Under the pieces are notes generated by a model that ran no database searches, had not been told where the DNA came from, and saw only the letters and a list, made by a program, of their open reading frames with translations. Shown here piece after piece: positions 3,701 to 48,456 of a stretch of DNA of 48,456 nt (positions are counted from its first letter, which is position 1; every line of letters starts with the position of its first letter). Origin of the DNA: a virus (taxonomy: Duplodnaviria; Heunggongvirae; Uroviricota; Caudoviricetes); IMG/VR virus record IMGVR_UViG_2850808358_000014, one strand, 5' to 3'. Position numbers and translations under genes: made by a program.

Positions 3701-4756
3701 TTAACCAATTTTCACAGTAACAAATTTGCGGATATCTGCCGGAACCGGCTGCGGTGCGCTGTGCGTCTGCACGTACTCAATCGCCGGATCGCCGCTCTCA
3801 ATCCAGTTTTTCGGGTAGTACATGTTTTGCGTTGCGCCCGTTCTTACCGCTTCCGGATCCATAATCGCGCCATAGGCCACCAGACCTTTATTGCTGGTGT
3901 TGCCCAGGACAAGCAAATCAGGCTCAAGGAAATATTTTTCGGTGCCGTCGCTGTCGGTGTATTTGCCGGAATAGACGATAAGGGCCAGATCACCCAGATA
4001 GCCTTTAAAGCTCACCACTTCGCCCAGGTTTTTACACGCCAGCTCTGCGGCGGATTCTGAACCACGGGAAAGATCGTACAGCTCGCGGAATTTTTTAAAG
4101 CTACGTAAGGTGCGCCATACGTCAGCGCCCATAATCATGACGTTGGCGGGGCAGCTGGCCTGTTCGGCGTATAGCTCGATGTCATCTGTCGGATCATGCG
4201 TCTCTTTATTCTGCTCAGACCATTTTTTTCCTGGCCCCTGATGGACAATGCAGTTTGCCGGCATATTCCAGTCGATTTCATAGCGTTCTATGCCTTCGCC
4301 TTCAATGATGTTTTTTCCGGTCGTGACCGCATTCACTGCCAGCCATTCCACACGCGCTTTAATGGCGTTTATCTGGCGGCGCATGTTGCCAGTAATGAGG
4401 CGCATACGTCGCCAGGTGGGGTCGTTAAGCAGTGCCGGATCTTCTCCAGCCATGCGCATGATGGTTTTTGATGGATCGATTTCGTGTTTGGGTTTCATGT
4501 AGCCAGGGCGGATAGTGCTTGTTTCGTACCCTTTATCACGCTGAACCTGGCTACCCACCACAGGCGAACAAAACGCCGACATGGTGACTTCTTCAATGTC
4601 CAGGGTATCCAGCATGACATCTTGTGTGTTGAAGGTTGCTACTTTCGGGAAAAACAGCGTGGTAAACAGCGGACTGAATTTAAATTCCGGGATATCCCCG
4701 CGATTCAGGTACGCGAAAAGCTGGTTAGTGTTAAGTGCCGTTGCTTTGTCTGCCAT
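3701..4756 (-). CDS. lambda gpE-like major capsid protein, 351 aa
   Basis: Collinear similarity to lambda E as recalled (PGYMKPKHE, DPTDDIE, KGYLGD, YPKNW motifs) and near-identical length. Confidence 0.85.
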   Translation of the reverse strand: MADKATALNTNQLFAYLNRGDIPEFKFSPLFTTLFFPKVATFNTQDVMLDTLDIEEVTMSAFCSPVVGSQVQRDKGYETSTIRPGYMKPKHEIDPSKTIMRMAGEDPALLNDPTWRRMRLITGNMRRQINAIKARVEWLAVNAVTTGKNIIEGEGIERYEIDWNMPANCIVHQGPGKKWSEQNKETHDPTDDIELYAEQASCPANVMIMGADVWRTLRSFKKFRELYDLSRGSESAAELACKNLGEVVSFKGYLGDLALIVYSGKYTDSDGTEKYFLEPDLLVLGNTSNKGLVAYGAIMDPEAVRTGATQNMYYPKNWIESGDPAIEYVQTHSAPQPVPADIRKFVTVKIG

Positions 4757-4962
4757 TATTCACCCTCATGAGTCTGATTCATGCCAAGCGCCGCACGTAA
4801 ATAGGCGCGTACCTGCCAGCCTGTTGACGGCTCAACCATCGCCAGCGGATCAAGTCCTGCCGCAATGCCCGCTTTTACGTTCTGCTGGTGGCGTTCCTTG
4901 AGCGCCTCCACGATATCGGGGCTTATGTAAACTGTCACCCCGCCTTTTTTCTCTTCTGTCAT
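4756..4962 (-). CDS. hypothetical protein, 68 aa, translationally coupled to the capsid gene
   Basis: Its stop overlaps the capsid ATG (TAATG); no family recognised. Confidence 0.5.
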   Translation of the reverse strand: MTEEKKGGVTVYISPDIVEALKERHQQNVKAGIAAGLDPLAMVEPSTGWQVRAYLRAALGMNQTHEGE

Positions 4963-7917: not shown

Positions 7918-8213
7918 TTTTTACCCCTGAATACGTTAAGCATCTTTTTTATTTCCTGAATATTGGCGCGTGCTTTCTCCCTGCTGGTGGGCACGTTACG
8001 CGGTACGGCCTGCACAAGAGAAAAATCACGGTCGAACTGATAAACAGGCATCACGCAATCATATTCGTAGCCTTCACGACGGTAGGTTACGCGCCGTTCC
8101 TCCACGCCCTTAATTATTACCGTGCCGCCGTACTTATCGCGGTAAATATCCCCGCGCATGAATTTAGTGCGAGTTTTGCCGCTGGCAGTTAAGCCAGGAT
8201 ATTTAAGTTTCAT
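7914..8213 (-). CDS. hypothetical protein, 99 aa
   Basis: Intact ORF whose stop overlaps the primase start; no family recognised. Confidence 0.5.
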   Translation of the reverse strand: MKLKYPGLTASGKTRTKFMRGDIYRDKYGGTVIIKGVEERRVTYRREGYEYDCVMPVYQFDRDFSLVQAVPRNVPTSREKARANIQEIKKMLNVFRGKK

Positions 8214-42497: not shown

Positions 42498-44494
42498 TTA
42501 AATGGCTTTTTTACGTCTGTTCTGTTCCAGAATATCCAGCGAATGATTCAGATATTCATCACGCTCAGTTTCGTATTCATCATCACGCTCCTGATTCTTC
42601 ACTCGTTCCGTATTACCGGAAGGCCGGAAAATGCCGACAATTCGTGATTCTGGTGCTTCAGGTTCGGCTATCTGCGGCAGCAGCTCTGCCACTTCCAGTG
42701 CATCCATTTGTTTCTGTGCCTTAATCGCTGCTTTCGTCGCAGATTTCAGTTGTTTCTGGCGGCGGCGATATTCACGGCCTGCCGCAGCATCATTAAACGC
42801 AACAGGTGCCAGACATTCCGCTTCACAGATAAACCGACCGTCCAGGGTGTAGCAATAAACCGTGCTGTGTAACTGCTGTGGATCAAATCTGACCACAACT
42901 TTTTTCACTCCGGCATTCATTAACGCCATGTTGTAATAAACGTTTTTCGCGCCTTTAAGGGAGCCGCCAACTTTAAGCGCGAACTCGCCTTTACGTGAAA
43001 CGTTCACCGCCTCGGCAGGCAGTAACAGCATCCGTTTTTGCTCTTCGGTAGGCTTACGCACAATCGTTCTGGCGTATTCACGCTCAAAAACGTCATCAAA
43101 CGAAAGTTTGCCTCCGCACATTTCTGTTTCACGGCCTGTTCTGGCATTGAACATCGCCACACCTTCGGCAAGGGTTTTCAGAAACAGCTCTGCATCAACA
43201 GCGCGGTCGCCATAGTTATCAGGTTTTGCCTGCGGATTTGGCCCCGTATATGCGCCAGCCAGTGCCGGATGCTTATCAACGTATTCCTCAAGCCCACCAA
43301 CACCGAAAGCACGTTCAACAGGTTTTGCCTGGCCCCAGCCTTTACCGGCAACAACGCTTGTCCAGTGCATTTTCGCCCCATCAGTAAAAACAGTCCTTTT
43401 GGATCGTCCTCTTTTACCTTAAAGCGGTAGCGATTGGGCGCGCCTCCCGTCAGCCATTTATTCGCAGCACCACGGGTGTTATCAATGGTGATGTGAAAAT
43501 CCTCCGGGATACCGTAGCGAGTCACAACATCCATGAACGAGAGGCGAATTGAATCAATGTTCTCGCTCACATCGCAGCGCCAGCCCAGAATTTTTCGGGT
43601 TTTCACATCCTGCCAGAACCATGTTTTCGGACGGATCACATCACCGTTAAACCAGCGTACAAAGACGTTATGCAGATAACCGTCGCCGTTGATCCACTGC
43701 ATGGCGTCCAGGTGTTCCACAGTTCGCTGCTGTGCCGGTATCAGATGCATCAGTGCATGTTCACCTTCACGACAGGCAACAACCATTGCCTCGTCCAGTT
43801 GCTGAATCCGGCGAAAGGCCGTGGCACGGGAGGGAATACTCCAGCCATGCTCGCGGGCTGCCAGTTCCAGACGCTCATAACATTTGCGGAAGGCGGGTTT
43901 TTCCGGTCGCAGATAATCTGCAATCAGAAACTGCCAGGCATCCTCGTCAAATTCACTTTTGTGAACATTGCGACGGGATGCTCCACGTCCATCAACAAGT
44001 GCAGCCGCCCAGTCAGGCTTCGCAAACTTCTGTACCTGGTAATACTTGTCCCGCAAAGTGGATGCGCTGACCTGGTAATGCCCTGCAACGGTCGCAAAAG
44101 CCGTTTTCGTTGAAATCCCCTGGTTCAGCATTTCGTCTGCAGCCTGAACCGCAGGCAACCATTTTTCAGCAAGTCTGCGCTGGGAATCGCTGGCGTTATC
44201 CCATTTGCTCCACAGTGCCTCACGATCATAATCATGGGCTTCCAGCGTGGGGCGGGCGATTTCAAAATACCCCTGGCTTGTTTCTATTTGCTCAGATTTT
44301 AATAACAACTCAGCACGTGCTGCCGCTGGTAGAACTGATATATGAAATTCCAAAGCCTTTGAACCCGTACGCTTGCGACGTAGTTCTGGATGATTGGCTG
44401 CAAGCTTTTCAAGATTGCGGCGAATACTCACCTCATGTTTAGGAAAGCATGACATTCCTACGCATTCTTGCGCTGTTACCCAATGGGTTAACAT
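42498..44494 (-). pseudogene. A: DDE transposase A, frameshifted
   Basis: 448-aa and 290-aa fragments both match Mu A; join ...FLLMG|AKMHWTSVV at a G/C run near 43377; N-terminal ~65 aa differ from Mu (D108-type). Confidence 0.9.
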
Positions 44495-44714
44495 GATGTT
44501 TTCTCCATATACCGAGAAGGCCAAATCTGGGCTGGTTCCATATCCAAATATCTAGCAATGATTGCTTCGTATCGTGGTATATGGCAGCGAAATACGTTAC
44601 GCATAGTGTCAGGCTTTAAGCCTGCCTCTCTGGATAATTGAGATAGTGTCTTCCCTTCATACGAACAGCAGCCTTTATCTGCTCTGCGTGCCAGTCTTGG
44701 TTTTTTGCTGACAT
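44488..44714 (-). pseudogene. ner: Ner-like early regulator (D108-type), frameshifted
   Basis: MSAKNQDWHAEQIKAAVRMKG then a frame slip near 44654; corrected it reads ...KTLSQLSREAGLKPDTMRNVFRCH... and ends overlapping the A start. Confidence 0.75.
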
Positions 44715-44883
44715 TCTGCGATCCTTACTCTCTTAACGTTTTCGGTAACTGATACCGGCTACCGCTATCGGGAAAAACGATAGCGCAGAAAAATGCGCAT
44801 TTCAAGAGCTGTGCGCATTTTTATTTTAACAAATGCAAATCAAAGCATTCTGTAAAATTCTTTATATAACAGAGAGATTGAAC
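44715..44883. promoter_or_regulatory. operator/promoter region between ner and c
   Basis: Divergent intergenic region, the position of operators O1-O3 and promoters Pe/Pc in Mu. Confidence 0.65.
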
Positions 44884-45492
44884 ATGACAGGCGAAAAAGA
44901 AAGCAAAAATGCAGAGCGCATTTTTATGCCCTCGGAAATAATGCGTTTCAAGGAACGCCTTGAAGAGGCAATGAATGGAGAATCAAGCCGGGCGTTTGCA
45001 GCTAAGTGCGGACTTTCTGATGGGGTTATCAGAAACTACCTGTCTGGCAAGACATACCCGTCTTTAGATCGATTAGCACAAATAGCCTACGCAACAGGGC
45101 GTCCAATAGAGTGGTTTATCCAAAGTCAGAGCATGCCAATGGTTGAGCATAAAAATGCTCAAGAGAATAAAAATCCTCAACCTGACCGCAGCACATTGAA
45201 AACTAAACTGATCGCAATTGTCGAATTGTTAGAGGACAAGGAACTGCATTCTGCGATTGAGTTGTTCAGAAAGAAAGGATTTGAAGCTCTTATGCCTGAG
45301 ATTTTTTCTTCCGATGATTCCATCCAGGCTGATTTGCAAGGTATTTCGCAGCAAACCTTACAAACAGCCAAAATGCTTGAATCATTACCAACAGATACCC
45401 GTAAAGAGATTTTGTCAAAGTATGGTATTTATGAACAGGAAGGTCTTGTAGCTCCTTCACAAGAACCACAAGATGTAAAAAAAGCCGTATAA
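44884..45492 (+). CDS. c: repressor c (non-Mu N-terminal DNA-binding region, Mu-like C-terminus)
   Basis: C-terminus ...ILSKYGIYEQEGLVAPSQEPQDVKKAV is close to Mu Repc; start taken at the second ATG, with an SD. Confidence 0.85.
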   Translation: MTGEKESKNAERIFMPSEIMRFKERLEEAMNGESSRAFAAKCGLSDGVIRNYLSGKTYPSLDRLAQIAYATGRPIEWFIQSQSMPMVEHKNAQENKNPQPDRSTLKTKLIAIVELLEDKELHSAIELFRKKGFEALMPEIFSSDDSIQADLQGISQQTLQTAKMLESLPTDTRKEILSKYGIYEQEGLVAPSQEPQDVKKAV

Positions 45493-45649
45493 CAACCATG
45501 AACCAGCTAAAACATACTTCACCTCACATAATCACACATGTAACATACCTAAACGGCATGAGCTGATTTGTGATATGAGTCATTTGGTTACAGCCTGGTT
45601 GTTATCGGTTTTGAACGTTTTTTGAAGCTGTTATTGAAATGATTTGCAG

Positions 45650-45830
45650 TGTTTTTGTTTTTCGTATTTTCAATGAAACAAAAGCAATTTTTTACTATCT
45701 TTCGCGTTTCATTGATTAACGACTAAAATTTGCGCTACAGGCTTGCAAGCCCCACCAAATCTAATCCCATCAGATCCCGAATAATCCAATGTCCTCCCGG
45801 TTTTTTTCGTACTTCAAGTGAATCAATACA
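45650..45830. other. Mu left end attL (MuA binding sites L1-L3)
   Basis: Reverse complement matches the Mu left-end sequence TGTATTGATTCACTTGAAGTACGAAAAAAACCGGGAGGACATTGG... as recalled. Confidence 0.85.
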
Positions 45831-45835
45831 GCCAG
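45831..45835. repeat. GCCAG target-site duplication, copy 2
   Basis: Identical to 8883-8887. Confidence 0.8.
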
Positions 45836-46830
45836 CTACCATCGGTGCGTTACCTGTCGCCGTTGCCCGCTCAGAAGGAGTCCTTGTCGGATACCTCCCT
45901 GGACTGGCCATGCGCCGCATAGCCGACTTACACGCCGGTGAAGCTAAAACTGATGCTCGTGACGCTGCCATCATTGCCGAAGCTGCCCGTACCCTGCCTC
46001 ACGCGCTACGCACGCTGAAACTGGCTGACGAGCAAATCGCCGAACTCTCCATGCTCTGCGGCTTCGATGATGATCTTGCCGCACAGACAACGCAGGCCAG
46101 CAACCGTATCCGCGGCCTTCTGACCCAGATACATCCGGCACTGGAGCGCGTTCTCGGTCCGAGACTTGAGCACCCGGCGGTACTCGATCTTCTCCAGCGA
46201 TATCCCTCACCAGAAAAACTCGCTTCGCTGGGTGAGAAGAAGCTGGCAGCCCAGCTCTGCAAACTTGCGCCTCGTCTGGGTAAACGCCTTGCAGCAGACA
46301 TAGCTCAGGCACTGGCCGAACAAACCGTCGTCGTTCCCGGCACGAATGCCGCTGCCGTAGTACTGCCACGTCTGGCACTCCAGCTCATCACGCTGCGTAA
46401 GCAAAGAGACGAGGTGGCGCTTGAGGTAGAACAGCGAGTTCTTGCTCACCCTCTTTACCCGGTCCTGACCAGTATGCCCGGAGTCGGTGTCAGGACCGCA
46501 GCCAGACTCCTCACCGAGGTCGCCTGCCGCGCCTTCGCCTCTGCCGCACATCTCGCTGCTTATGCTGGCCTTGCGCCGGTAACTCGGCGATCCGGCTCGT
46601 CAATACGCGGTGAGCATCTCTCGCGACGGGGTAATAAAGCTCTCAAACGGGCGTTGTTCCTGTTGGCCTTCGCCGCGCTCAGGGATCCGCTCTCCAGGGC
46701 TTACTACACCCGCAAAATGAGTCAGGGAAAACGACACAATCAGGCGCTTATCGCCCTGGCGAGACGACGCTGCGACGTTCTGTTCGCCATGATGCGCGAC
46801 GGGACTTTTTATACCCCGCAGGGGTCATAA
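45831..46830 (+). pseudogene. IS110-family transposase, C-terminal fragment (continues 8686-8887)
   Basis: In frame with the N-terminal fragment once Mu and one TSD copy are removed; about 60% GC. Confidence 0.85.
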
Positions 46831-46843
46831 CATGCTTGACAAC

Positions 46844-47065
46844 TTAATAGGGGCACCCCCCATTTTCACAATCAGCAACAAGAATATTTTTAGCGTCATT
46901 CAGCGACCGCGTTGCGATGTATCGGATACATTCCAGGGCGAACAATGTGTATTCTTCCCGTTCTTCCTTTCGTGCAAGCTCTGCTGTGCATTCAATATCA
47001 ATAAGCGCGTGCATCAGCGTAGTGAGTGCGGCGGCGGCTGCGTCCGGTGTGGTTTTATTGTGCAT
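46844..47065 (-). CDS. hypothetical protein, 73 aa
   Basis: Start overlaps the stop of the upstream gene (ATGCACAATAA); 3' end abuts the IS right end. Confidence 0.5.
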   Translation of the reverse strand: MHNKTTPDAAAAALTTLMHALIDIECTAELARKEEREEYTLFALECIRYIATRSLNDAKNILVADCENGGCPY

Positions 47066-47228
47066 AGGTTTCCCCCTGGCGAATACGGGCGACAAAAATC
47101 AGATGTGCGTGCGGCAGCTGCGCGCGGGCTTCGCGTTCAGTGGCTGCGGTAACGGTGAATATTGCAATGCTGTCTGTCAGGCACTGCATAAAGCGCCAGA
47201 CAAAGTAAGGGCGTGCGGATACAGCCAT
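47055..47228 (-). CDS. small protein, tandem paralog A (possibly Icd-like)
   Basis: 57 aa with WRF and TEREAR...FVARIRQG motifs; SD AAGGAG-N9-ATG. Confidence 0.5.
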   Translation of the reverse strand: MAVSARPYFVWRFMQCLTDSIAIFTVTAATEREARAQLPHAHLIFVARIRQGETYAQ

Positions 47229-47522
47229 GTGAAAGGCTCCTTTGCTTGATGTAAGGAGTCTCGCCAGCACGCTGTCAAACATGGTGGCGGGACGTAACAG
47301 GGTTGACAGACTGGCAGCAAAGAAACCAGCGAGCGCAAAGGCTCCCCCGTTACGCCCCGCCATAATGCGGGTATGGGTAGGTTTACGGACACAAAAAAAC
47401 CGCATATCGGAATGTAAGCGGCTGTCCGCTTTGCTATTCAGGCTGTCAAACCCGGTCGCCATGTGGGCGACGGGGGAAGAATACAGCCCCACGGTAATTT
47501 TTTGCAAGTTGTTTTTACGCAT
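47229..47522 (-). CDS. hypothetical protein reading in frame into paralog A (no stop as given)
   Basis: Start overlaps the paralog B stop (ATGCGTAA); may be a separate gene merged by a frame error. Confidence 0.4.
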
Positions 47523-47703
47523 GGCCAACCCCCTGACGAATACGGGCCGCGAATACAGCAACACAACCGGACGGGCAATGGTTACGCGCTTCGCGTTCAG
47601 TCCAGGCGGTGACGTGGATGATTTGGGACTCTGACGCACCAAAGGCGATAAAGCGCCAGAGAAAGGCGGTTTGAGAATGTACAAGGGTAGGGGTAGTAGC
47701 CAT
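47515..47703 (-). CDS. small protein, tandem paralog B (possibly Icd-like)
   Basis: 62 aa with WRF and TEREAR...FAARIRQG motifs; same SD spacing as paralog A. Confidence 0.5.
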   Translation of the reverse strand: MATTPTLVHSQTAFLWRFIAFGASESQIIHVTAWTEREARNHCPSGCVAVFAARIRQGVGHA

Positions 47704-47795
47704 GTCGGCAGCCTCCTTGATTGATGGAATGTAACCACCGCCGGAGGTCCTAAGCTCGCTGGCGGTGGACTGTACAGGGTTAGGACTACTGGCAA

Positions 47796-48053
47796 TCAAG
47801 GGAACCAGCCTACCCGAAGGTAGCCCCATACAGCCCACCATTGTATAGGTGTGCGTGTGCGTCGATACAAAAAAGACGCGTGCGGCGTCTGTATCGCCTC
47901 GATTGTCAGCGGGGTCCTAATCCCGGCACCCGTTTTATAAGGTGCACGCGAATCATAGCCTTGGCTGGCAGTGGCGATCAACTGGTTTTTCATACCCGCT
48001 TTATTCAGGTTGTGCGAGTCCCGCCCTTGCAGGTGTGTGGTATGATTTAACAT
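47796..48053 (-). CDS. hypothetical protein, 85 aa, first gene of the leftward operon
   Basis: Internal Met of a longer tracked ORF; lies just downstream of the operator region. Confidence 0.5.
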   Translation of the reverse strand: MLNHTTHLQGRDSHNLNKAGMKNQLIATASQGYDSRAPYKTGAGIRTPLTIEAIQTPHASFLYRRTRTPIQWWAVWGYLRVGWFP

Positions 48054-48054
48054 A

Positions 48055-48258
48055 GCTACCTCGATACTGTTGCTATCGTTGGTGGTTAGACGCCCTGCAT
48101 GTGTTGCGAGCACTGCGGGGCGTTGCTTAATTTGAGTGACAAAACTCAAACTGTGCGCACAGATTAAAATCATGTGTGCGCACATGTCAATACTTAACAT
48201 CTCATTTTTTTTGCTGTATTGTGTGCGCCCATAAAGTCCATTTAAGTGAGGTGCATCA
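48055..48258. promoter_or_regulatory. divergent promoter/operator region with TGTGCGCACA palindromes
   Basis: CTGTGCGCACAG, CATGTGTGCGCACATG and a half-site TGTGTGCGC between the divergent genes. Confidence 0.5.
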
Positions 48259-48456
48259 ATGTCTAGCGGTAACACAAACAACAAATCAGCAAAGAAAAAT
48301 ATTCGATTCCCACATGAGCTTATAGATGGGGTTTATGCCAGCGTTGAACAAGAAAAATTAACTAATCCTAGTGCTAATTTTTCCGCATGGGTCTTAGATG
48401 CCTGTGGACGCAAATTAAAATATGAACAGCGCAGGAAGGCCAAAGAATCAGAATAA
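48259..48456 (+). CDS. small putative DNA-binding regulator, 65 aa
   Basis: Basic N-terminus; divergent from the operon across the palindromic operators; no family confidently recognised. Confidence 0.5.
   Translation: MSSGNTNNKSAKKNIRFPHELIDGVYASVEQEKLTNPSANFSAWVLDACGRKLKYEQRRKAKESE

Follow-up and report, generated by a model that had tools for sequence, protein, structure and literature searches.

The window analysed here is a stretch of 48,456 nucleotides filed as a virus in IMG/VR (record IMGVR_UViG_2850808358_000014). Towards its right-hand end two small genes of the Icd/Kil-like kind lie in tandem on the minus strand, as do all the cassette parts described below; in reading order they are called copy B and copy A, and the units to which they belong cassette B and cassette A. 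A first-pass annotation, made from the letters alone, had noticed the two genes and an open reading frame (ORF) running from one into the other, and had offered a genuine fusion or a frame error as its explanation. That choice overlooks the intervening DNA itself, which, judged by RNA family matches, encodes a seqA/isrK-type leader and a C4/CI antisense RNA and not a protein domain. The protein-coding features are the following.

47703 to 47515, minus strand: copy B, Icd/Kil-like gene, 62 aa (NF033153, 60.1 bits, E=1.5e-16)
47228 to 47055, minus strand: copy A, Icd/Kil-like gene, 57 aa (NF033153, 53.6 bits, E=1.7e-14)
47229 to 47522, minus strand: eta-type in-frame extension of copy A from ATG 47522, overlapping all the RNA parts of cassette A

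Both copies pass the curated cutoff of 25 bits of the NCBIfam model NF033153 (phage_ICD_like, host cell division inhibitor Icd-like), on which the characterised proteins score 52.6 bits (P1 Icd) and 73.9 bits (P4 Kil region). They are 44% identical to each other (BLASTP E=6e-12), with the motifs WRF, TEREAR and ARIRQG unchanged between them, and copy B is 35% identical to P1 Icd. The early description of two paralogs of about 60 aa sharing these motifs thus held, as did the guess that they resemble Icd-like proteins of P4-type elements. P1 Icd inhibits cell division or kills the host on expression (P1 record note; PMC8198154), and P4 Kil is a cell-killing protein according to PMC10111431. By these matches, copies A and B belong to the Icd-like family that includes P1 Icd and P4 Kil. 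A PDB sequence search gave no match.

Comparisons were made with 80 related loci from IMG/VR, together with RefSeq, P1, P7, D6, P4 and Stx2-phage loci. Among the relatives, variable sites at first, second and third codon positions number 18:16:31 in copy A and 12:12:27 in copy B, and this enrichment at third positions indicates that both are real protein-coding genes. Both are preceded by AAGGAG, as first described, but not in an identical nine-nucleotide context: the distance to the ATG is 8 nt in copy A, where the Shine-Dalgarno sequence (SD) ends at 47237 and the ATG is at 47228, and 9 nt in copy B (SD ending at 47713, ATG at 47703), so that the two ribosome-binding contexts are similar only. 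The similarity of the two units reaches past the proteins, across the entire upstream non-coding part, and this alignment of the upstream parts suggests that the repeat is more than a gene pair.

An Rfam search covering 44000-48456, with gathering scores of 45 bits for RF01695 (C4), 50 bits for RF01394 (isrK) and 46.7 bits for RF03163 (c4-a1b1), gave the RNA parts listed here with the sites associated with them, first for cassette B.

47952 to 47981, minus strand: promoter-like site of cassette B, -35 TTGATC (47981-47976), -10 TATGAT (47957-47952), 18-nt spacer
47869 to 47945, minus strand: leader of cassette B, seqA/isrK type (RF01394 isrK, 64 bits)
47920 to 47914, minus strand: a1-B, TTAGGAC
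47905 to 47897, minus strand: b1-B, CAATCGAGG
47890 to 47869, minus strand: terminator hairpin of cassette B with a T6 run (in the scan, terminator 47890-47874, then the T-run)
47758 to 47845, minus strand: C4-B antisense RNA (RF01695, 78.6 bits, full-length model match)
47802 to 47793, minus strand: b' loop of C4-B
47786 to 47780, minus strand: a' of C4-B
47753 to 47747, minus strand: target a2-B, TTAGGAC
47723 to 47715, minus strand: target b2-B, CAATCAAGG, overlapping the SD AAGGAGG (47718-47712)
47796 to 48053, minus strand: upstream ORF over the promoter, the leader and part of C4-B (phrog_29966, positions 6-70)

The corresponding parts of cassette A lie between the two genes.

47478 to 47507, minus strand: weak promoter-like site of cassette A, TTGCAA-18-TATTCT, aligning with the position of the cassette B promoter
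47393 to 47484, minus strand: a1/b1 leader of cassette A (RF03163 c4-a1b1, 48.5 bits, match 47435-47484)
47449 to 47443, minus strand: a1-A, TTGACAG
47436 to 47429, minus strand: b1-A, TAGCAAAG
47421 to 47393, minus strand: terminator-like hairpin of cassette A with T7
47280 to 47367, minus strand: C4-A antisense RNA (RF01695, 74.8 bits, full-length model match)
47325 to 47316, minus strand: b' loop of C4-A
47309 to 47303, minus strand: a' of C4-A
47278 to 47272, minus strand: target a2-A, TTGACAG
47246 to 47237, minus strand: target b2-A, AGCAAAGGAG, covering the SD of copy A

The two leaders differ in the model that they fit: that of cassette B scores 17.7 bits on c4-a1b1, against a gathering score of 46.7, and that of cassette A 35.4 bits on isrK, against 50. 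The cassette B promoter-like site has 9 of 12 consensus matches in the scan, and its predicted start, at about 47945, is the first base (5' end) of the isrK match. Each C4 begins with an AUG in the frame of its own small gene, at 47841 for copy B and at 47363 for copy A, the latter 135 nt before the copy A ATG. RNase P-type sequence features are present as well, namely a GG inside this AUG at the predicted C4 5' end, and a 3' GCCACC as in P1. A recent tandem duplication was considered as the origin of the pair and rejected, since the leader and C4 lineages differ (the C4s belong to different sub-lineages, P1-like against P4/Stx-phage-like) and the proteins share only the 44% identity given above.

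Co-variation among the related loci bears on these assignments. Compensatory double changes keep pairing at 9 of the 24 predicted C4 pairs (18 distinct sequences). Among 56 modules there are 13 distinct b' loops (the loop of hairpin 2) and 8 distinct a' sequences (the 3' single-stranded segment), and the sites a2 and b2 downstream, the latter over the SD, as well as a1 and b1 upstream, change to match the a' and b' of their own module. Pairing was tested with single loop segments against targets; RNAduplex on whole RNAs, which ignores intramolecular structure, discriminated poorly. The mean b'/b2 energy was -13.3 kcal/mol for cognate pairs versus -6.7 kcal/mol for non-cognate ones, and the cognate b2 was the best target in 12 of 13 rows.

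The two cassettes of the window have different specificities, a=TTGACAG and b=AGCAAAG(GAG) for A, a=TTAGGAC and b=CAATCAAGG for B. C4-B pairs with its own a2/b2 at -9.3/-12.4 kcal/mol and with the cassette A targets at -4.5/-7.3; for C4-A the values are -8.4/-11.4 on its own a2/b2 and -5.6/-7.3 on the cassette B targets. All cognate pairs of the window fall between -8.4 and -13.2 kcal/mol, and seven of the eight cross pairs between -4.5 and -7.3, the exception being a'-B with the cassette A leader (-9.8 kcal/mol). Cassettes A and B are orthogonal at the b sites and the downstream a2 sites.

The long ORF lies over cassette A. Its ATG at 47522 overlaps the stop of copy B as ATGCGTAA (47522-47515), and, as had been noticed at first, it reads without a stop into the other paralog: 98 codons lead to the copy A ATG, and the product, from 47522 to 47055, has 155 aa. 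That a sequencing or assembly indel artificially joined two ORFs is hardly credible. Frame problems do occur elsewhere in the window (the split MuA gene described below, and T6 instead of T7 in the cassette B terminator); however, the same 286-nt spacer, with the frame open up to an ATG on the first gene's stop, is present in 18 of 18 related tandem loci (12 distinct), which are independent assemblies including complete RefSeq chromosomes, and 30 contigs with Shigella boydii names carry exactly this 155-aa sequence. The suspected frame error is thereby dismissed.

A genuine two-domain protein, in which a 98-aa N-terminal domain with its own function would be fused to the Icd-like domain, we regard as very unlikely. 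The frame is conserved, and in E. coli and Shigella, complete genomes included, the 154-155-aa product carries the PGAP name of an Icd-like protein. However, Pfam, NCBIfam and PHROG searches of the 98-codon part gave no match, and its variable sites are distributed 22:23:16 over the codon positions, with no third-position excess (26:24:16 over 300 nt for the A leader, 57:51:59 for the B leader). In three loci (L012, L017 and L021) a compensated +1/-1 indel pair makes about 30 codons read in another frame, and the RNA family matches account for the full stretch.

What is conserved is the openness of the frame. Over 300 nt no stop interrupts it in any of the 12 distinct A-type sequences or in 24 of the 27 distinct B-type ones, and the ATG overlapping the copy B stop is invariant in the 12 distinct relatives. 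Once three frameshifted sequences are left out, A-type sequences have no polymorphic stop site in the long frame versus 7 and 11 in the other two, and B-type sequences none versus 37 in the other frames. The mutational targets for stops are comparable, 21 in the long frame versus 30 and 44 for A, and 29 versus 34 and 36 for B. Apart from the compensated pair, the only other indel, between B sub-lineages, is of 3 nt. By these patterns, the long frame is kept open without amino-acid constraint.

It is possible, though we doubt it, that the cassettes and the Icd-like genes are real and the frame that joins them incidental, derived from an A-poor, structure-constrained ancestor, never usefully translated and misleading to gene callers. 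A 98-codon open frame arises in 3.2% of dinucleotide shuffles of the same stretch, the amino-acid sequence is unconstrained, the frames of cassette B in the window and of the Stx2 phage are broken, and P1, P7 and D6 carry the switch with the frame between the C4 AUG and icd closed or shifted. Yet the absence of polymorphic stops, against 18 (A) and 37 (B) in the other frames on comparable targets, does not fit well with an incidental frame, nor do the invariant ATG and the fact that relatives with an open frame have no indels other than a 3-nt block or the compensated +1/-1 pair; experimental precedents for a translated frame exist in P4 eta and Gifsy-1 orf45.

In the window, the long frame of cassette B is broken. 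The T-run at 47869-47874 is T6 here and T7 in the near-identical locus L007 and in the Stx2 phage F039, and because of this one-nucleotide difference the upstream ORF (47796 to 48053) is out of frame with copy B; its counterpart is in frame in L004 and L007, which have T7. We read this ORF as the remnant of an eta-type frame: it matches positions 6-70 of phrog_29966 (188 aa), and copy B matches positions 125-186 of the same profile. The T6 run could reflect a genuine mutation or else an error in sequencing a homopolymer. In L004, a 437-codon ATG-initiated frame (1376-2689) runs antisense to ylcI, through the promoter, isrK and C4, into copy B, and the same frame is open for at least about 1 kb upstream in 20 of 37 loci with C4 upstream. 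By its sequence, it could be either a very long eta-type frame or an antisense-ORF artefact.

Among the closest known systems is the immunity region of the phage-plasmid P4 (NC_001609), with the order PLE, seqA, CI RNA, seqC, kil/eta, epsilon and alpha. Here Rfam matches isrK at 8692-8615 and C4 at 8507-8420; these are seqA and the CI RNA (PMC10111431). The obsolete 137-aa "cI protein" coding sequence of P4 has Phage_ASH over the CI RNA region and NF033153 over its C-terminus. The P4 frame ending at 8168 has starts for 199, 198 and 197 aa that overlap the stop of the alpA-like orf88, a 111-aa start that is the C4 5' AUG, and a 65-aa start preceded by AGGAGG. Forti et al. reportedly described the nested P4 genes eta and kil in 1999. 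As the same nested frame exists in P4, the "fusion" of the window corresponds to an eta/kil layout, in which a long ORF, in frame with a Kil-like gene, spans leader and C4. Cassette A has this arrangement; for the B type it is found in 24 of 27 distinct relatives and not in the window.

In P4, as PMC10111431 summarises it, eta contains a constitutive promoter, transcription is ended early by CI and seqA, and Kil is a truncated form of Eta. The full-length form is made solely on transcripts of a late promoter further upstream, with translation coupled to that of the alpA homologue, and translation of Eta prevents termination (PMC10111431). P4 and the element share, in the same order, an isrK-type leader, a C4-type RNA and an Icd-like gene with AGGAGG in b2, and in both the cassette lies upstream of satellite replication genes. 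As in cassette B, the C4 5' AUG of P4 precedes the small gene by 138 nt and shares its frame, and eta starts at an ATG that overlaps the stop of the upstream gene (in P4, an ATG triplet at the orf88 stop). P4 differs in having one cassette, whereas here there are two in series with different a and b specificities, and in a leader about 110 nt longer between isrK and C4. Moreover, the long ORF of cassette A is coupled to the upstream Kil-like gene and not to an alpA/vis homologue, and epsilon follows in P4, whereas in the relatives of the element small ORFs, a DUF4222 gene and a primase or RepA helicase gene follow.

The P1 immI region is annotated in the order a1-b1-c4-a2-b2, over the icd ribosome-binding site, then icd, and ant1 overlaps the icd stop. 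Each unit of the window has the anatomy of the P1 record, because of its Rfam matches and gene order. RNase P cleavage at the GG inside the AUG yields C4 there (PMC5320573; P1 record coordinates). Over leader and C4, cassette A has 75-82% identity to immI of P1, P7, D6 and relatives; with P1 in particular, leader and c4 share about 80% DNA identity, the a site TTGACAG is the same, and the next gene likewise overlaps the icd stop. As between P1 and P7, specificity differences sit in a' and b', and the a site of P7 is used by other satellites. The b site differs (GTTAGTG in P1, AGCAAAG in cassette A). P1 is a plasmid prophage whereas the element here is a satellite, and no antirepressor is coupled downstream; a second cassette and then a 73-aa ORF (phrog_5146) take that place.

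Gifsy-1 of Salmonella offers a second experimental parallel. Immediately after isrK comes orf45, a translated ORF which overlaps the processed RNA STnc1160 and is coupled to the next gene; it is conserved in nucleotides but not in amino acids (PMC4825925). Common to both systems are an isrK-type small RNA with its own promoter and terminator and, downstream, a stable processed RNA under a translated ORF; the difference is that orf45 ends at the start of the antirepressor gene anrP (AUGA), not in an Icd-like gene. STnc1160 may be C4-like, by the authors' own analogy to P4 CI. Gifsy-1 itself was not found in the phage collection with the isrK consensus.

The affinities of cassette B lie elsewhere. 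For its leader and C4, a region of 85-89% identity is present in 169 phage records, most of them from Stx2a-converting phages. In the Stx2 phage F039 (L084, LC710660; 2516-2757) the sites a1, b1, a', b', a2 and b2 are identical to those of cassette B (47704-47945), with compensatory changes between the two in one C4 stem. The gene downstream in the Stx2 phage encodes, however, a 215-aa antirepressor/Rha-like regulator and not an Icd-like protein, and the F039 frame upstream of C4 is broken. In sequence, then, cassette A looks P1-like and cassette B shares its specificity sites with an Stx2 phage, and the identity of these sites raises the possibility of RNA cross-talk in trans.

The RNA family matches, C4 covariation, co-variation of a' and b' with their targets, orthogonality, a protein constraint confined to the Icd-like genes and the maintenance of the open frame together make it reasonably likely, in our judgement, that the regulatory end of this satellite carries two tandem RNA-immunity cassettes of the P4/P1 type, with an eta-type frame translated to escape immunity. 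Each cassette would run, on the minus strand, from the promoter to a leader with the decoys a1 and b1 and a terminator, a C4 of about 79 nt, a2 and b2, and the Kil/Icd-like gene, with b2 over the Shine-Dalgarno sequence and the stop of the Kil/Icd-like gene overlapping the next start codon. By analogy with P1, P4 and Gifsy-1, from which the RNase P excision, the C4 block with termination, the competition by the leader and the eta-type read-through are taken, each promoter would give mostly a short leader RNA ending at the terminator, and read-through transcripts would yield C4 by RNase P cleavage at the GG inside the AUG. C4 would pair with a2 and b2 and block translation of the Kil/Icd-like gene, with premature termination as a consequence, leaving the downstream replication genes off, and the leader RNA, through a1 and b1, would compete for C4.

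On the same scheme, ribosomes finishing copy B would begin anew at ATG 47522 and go on translating, past the terminator and C4-A, until they entered copy A. Translation through the long frame would suppress termination and bypass the C4-A block, so that upstream-translated transcripts would escape immunity. This step draws on frame conservation and the P4 precedent; that translation of the long ORF prevents Rho-dependent termination is suggested by an open frame that shows no amino-acid constraint and by the P4 literature. With two cassettes in series, the downstream genes would stand behind two orthogonal locks joined by overlapping stop and start codons.

Several observations weigh against this scheme. 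The terminator lies inside the long ORF, and because of this few transcripts may reach it. The promoter-like site of cassette A has 8 of 12 consensus matches by eye, which is under the scan threshold. The stop-avoidance statistics are only approximate, because the related loci are phylogenetically non-independent. Given the closed or shifted frames of P1, P7 and D6, the RNA switch works without a long ORF. Finally, with the long frame of cassette B broken and the operon severed downstream, the element is probably no longer functional here.

A larger proposal, which we hold to be rather unlikely, is a serial, translationally coupled relay, from an alpA-side ORF to eta-B/kil-B, then eta-A/kil-A and the replication genes. 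It would override two orthogonal locks, each tuned to a different resident phage type, and with C4 and isrK-type RNAs acting in trans, satellite and phages could each silence or derepress the other. If true, helper and satellite would have a means of sensing or interfering with one another at the level of RNA.

The reach of the searches for relatives varied. A scan of genome contigs with a profile of the two-protein alignment returned one locus only, a back-translated DNA pattern found none among viral contigs, and tblastn of copy B against phages gave a single 16.5-kb record without reaching P1 Icd. Seeded with the two C4s of the window, nhmmer detected C4 in no more than 45 of 84 loci. Of the 39 others, 38, including L003, had no C4 at the Rfam gathering threshold; the exception among the 39 is L077, where the Rfam match is to int-alpA RNA only. 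In this second class of loci (L040-L083, for example L040 2170-2500), nothing but a short GC hairpin separates the first Icd-like gene from a promoter and a divergent repressor-like gene. In L042, L069, L073 and L079-L081, a C4 and a second Icd-like gene follow, with the same 286-nt spacer.

These results also bear on existing annotation. The first-pass annotation had proposed profile searches for Icd-like and Ash-like families; the Icd-like model matched both paralogs, as described, whereas PF10554 (Phage_ASH, gathering threshold 26 bits) matched neither paralog and none of the cassette A forms. Its match in the window, of 42.1 bits, covers residues 1-56 of the long form of copy B (108 aa), the part translated from the C4-B RNA gene (47758-47845). 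In P4 it scores 59.7 bits over the CI RNA region of the old 'cI' ORF (L089 8420-8584). Judging from these positions, PF10554, at least in its C-terminal half, appears to model a translated non-coding RNA gene or an unconstrained eta-type frame.

Among the PHROG families, the phrog_29966 profile includes the translation of the leader (window 47515-48053), and phrog_995 has an extension of about 100 aa at the N-terminus, ahead of the antirepressor (L084 2758-3402). The label 'transcriptional repressor' on the Icd-like phrog_1743 and phrog_6196 probably goes back to the former idea of a 'c4/cI repressor protein'. The analysis thus offers an explanation for a recurrent annotation artefact: the 154-180-aa "Icd-like" or "ash family" proteins of PGAP include translated C4/CI and isrK genes, as do phrog_29966, phrog_995 and at least part of PF10554, and the RNA genes are unannotated in most records.

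The mechanism, components and logic of such cassettes are known from P1, P4 and Gifsy-1, and matches of the C4 and isrK models to Gram-negative phage-inducible chromosomal islands (PICIs) were already noted (PMC10111431). In a limited literature search, neither a series of two cassettes with orthogonal specificities nor a satellite cassette with the specificity of an Stx2 phage turned up, and the tandem heterospecific arrangement appears to be undescribed. The P4 eta/kil device, a frame maintained because its translation matters and its product does not, would be widespread in E. coli and Shigella satellites, and antisense specificity appears to diversify as in P1/P7 heteroimmunity, with at least 13 b' and 8 a' variants. 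Doubled orthogonal cassettes, one of them matching an Stx2 phage, would provide a testable route to RNA cross-talk between satellites and helper or competitor phages.

Downstream of copy A the element is interrupted. One further gene is coupled to it.

46844 to 47065, minus strand: ORF after copy A, with its ATG at 47065 overlapping the copy A stop (ATGCACAATAA); phrog_5146 and phrog_2512

This ORF has 73 aa here, and an intact version of 78 aa exists in L007; its 3' end (the last codons) has been replaced by an IS110-family insertion. The next genes in relatives are a 77-aa ORF, a DUF4222 gene and a primase or RepA helicase gene. The IS110-family transposase gene (region 45730-46850) is without about 54 N-terminal domain positions, and TGTATTGATTCACTTGAAGTACG... 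at 45830, on the minus strand, is what we take to be the canonical left end of Mu. From the sequence, a Mu-like prophage seems to have inserted into an earlier IS110-family insertion at the 3' end of the ORF after copy A, this order following from the truncation of the transposase gene by the Mu left end at 45830. The element is what remains of a satellite, interrupted by an IS110-family element and a Mu-like prophage.

Two overlapping ORFs, 43178-44524 and 42498-43370, share the Mu transposase A gene between them, and the break in the DDE_2 domain, at profile position 118, points to a frameshift or an error of sequencing. Further left are MuB-like, Gam, gp11-like and lysozyme genes. The same IS110-family element is inside C4-A in L004 (2882-4077), and L007 has an IS3-family transposase gene (4077-4895) after the DUF4222 gene; these insertion sequence (IS) events fit decay in IS-rich genomes of the Shigella type. 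At the other edge, a divergent gene of the YlcI/YnfO family (48259-48456, plus strand, 57.9 bits) ends exactly where the window ends.

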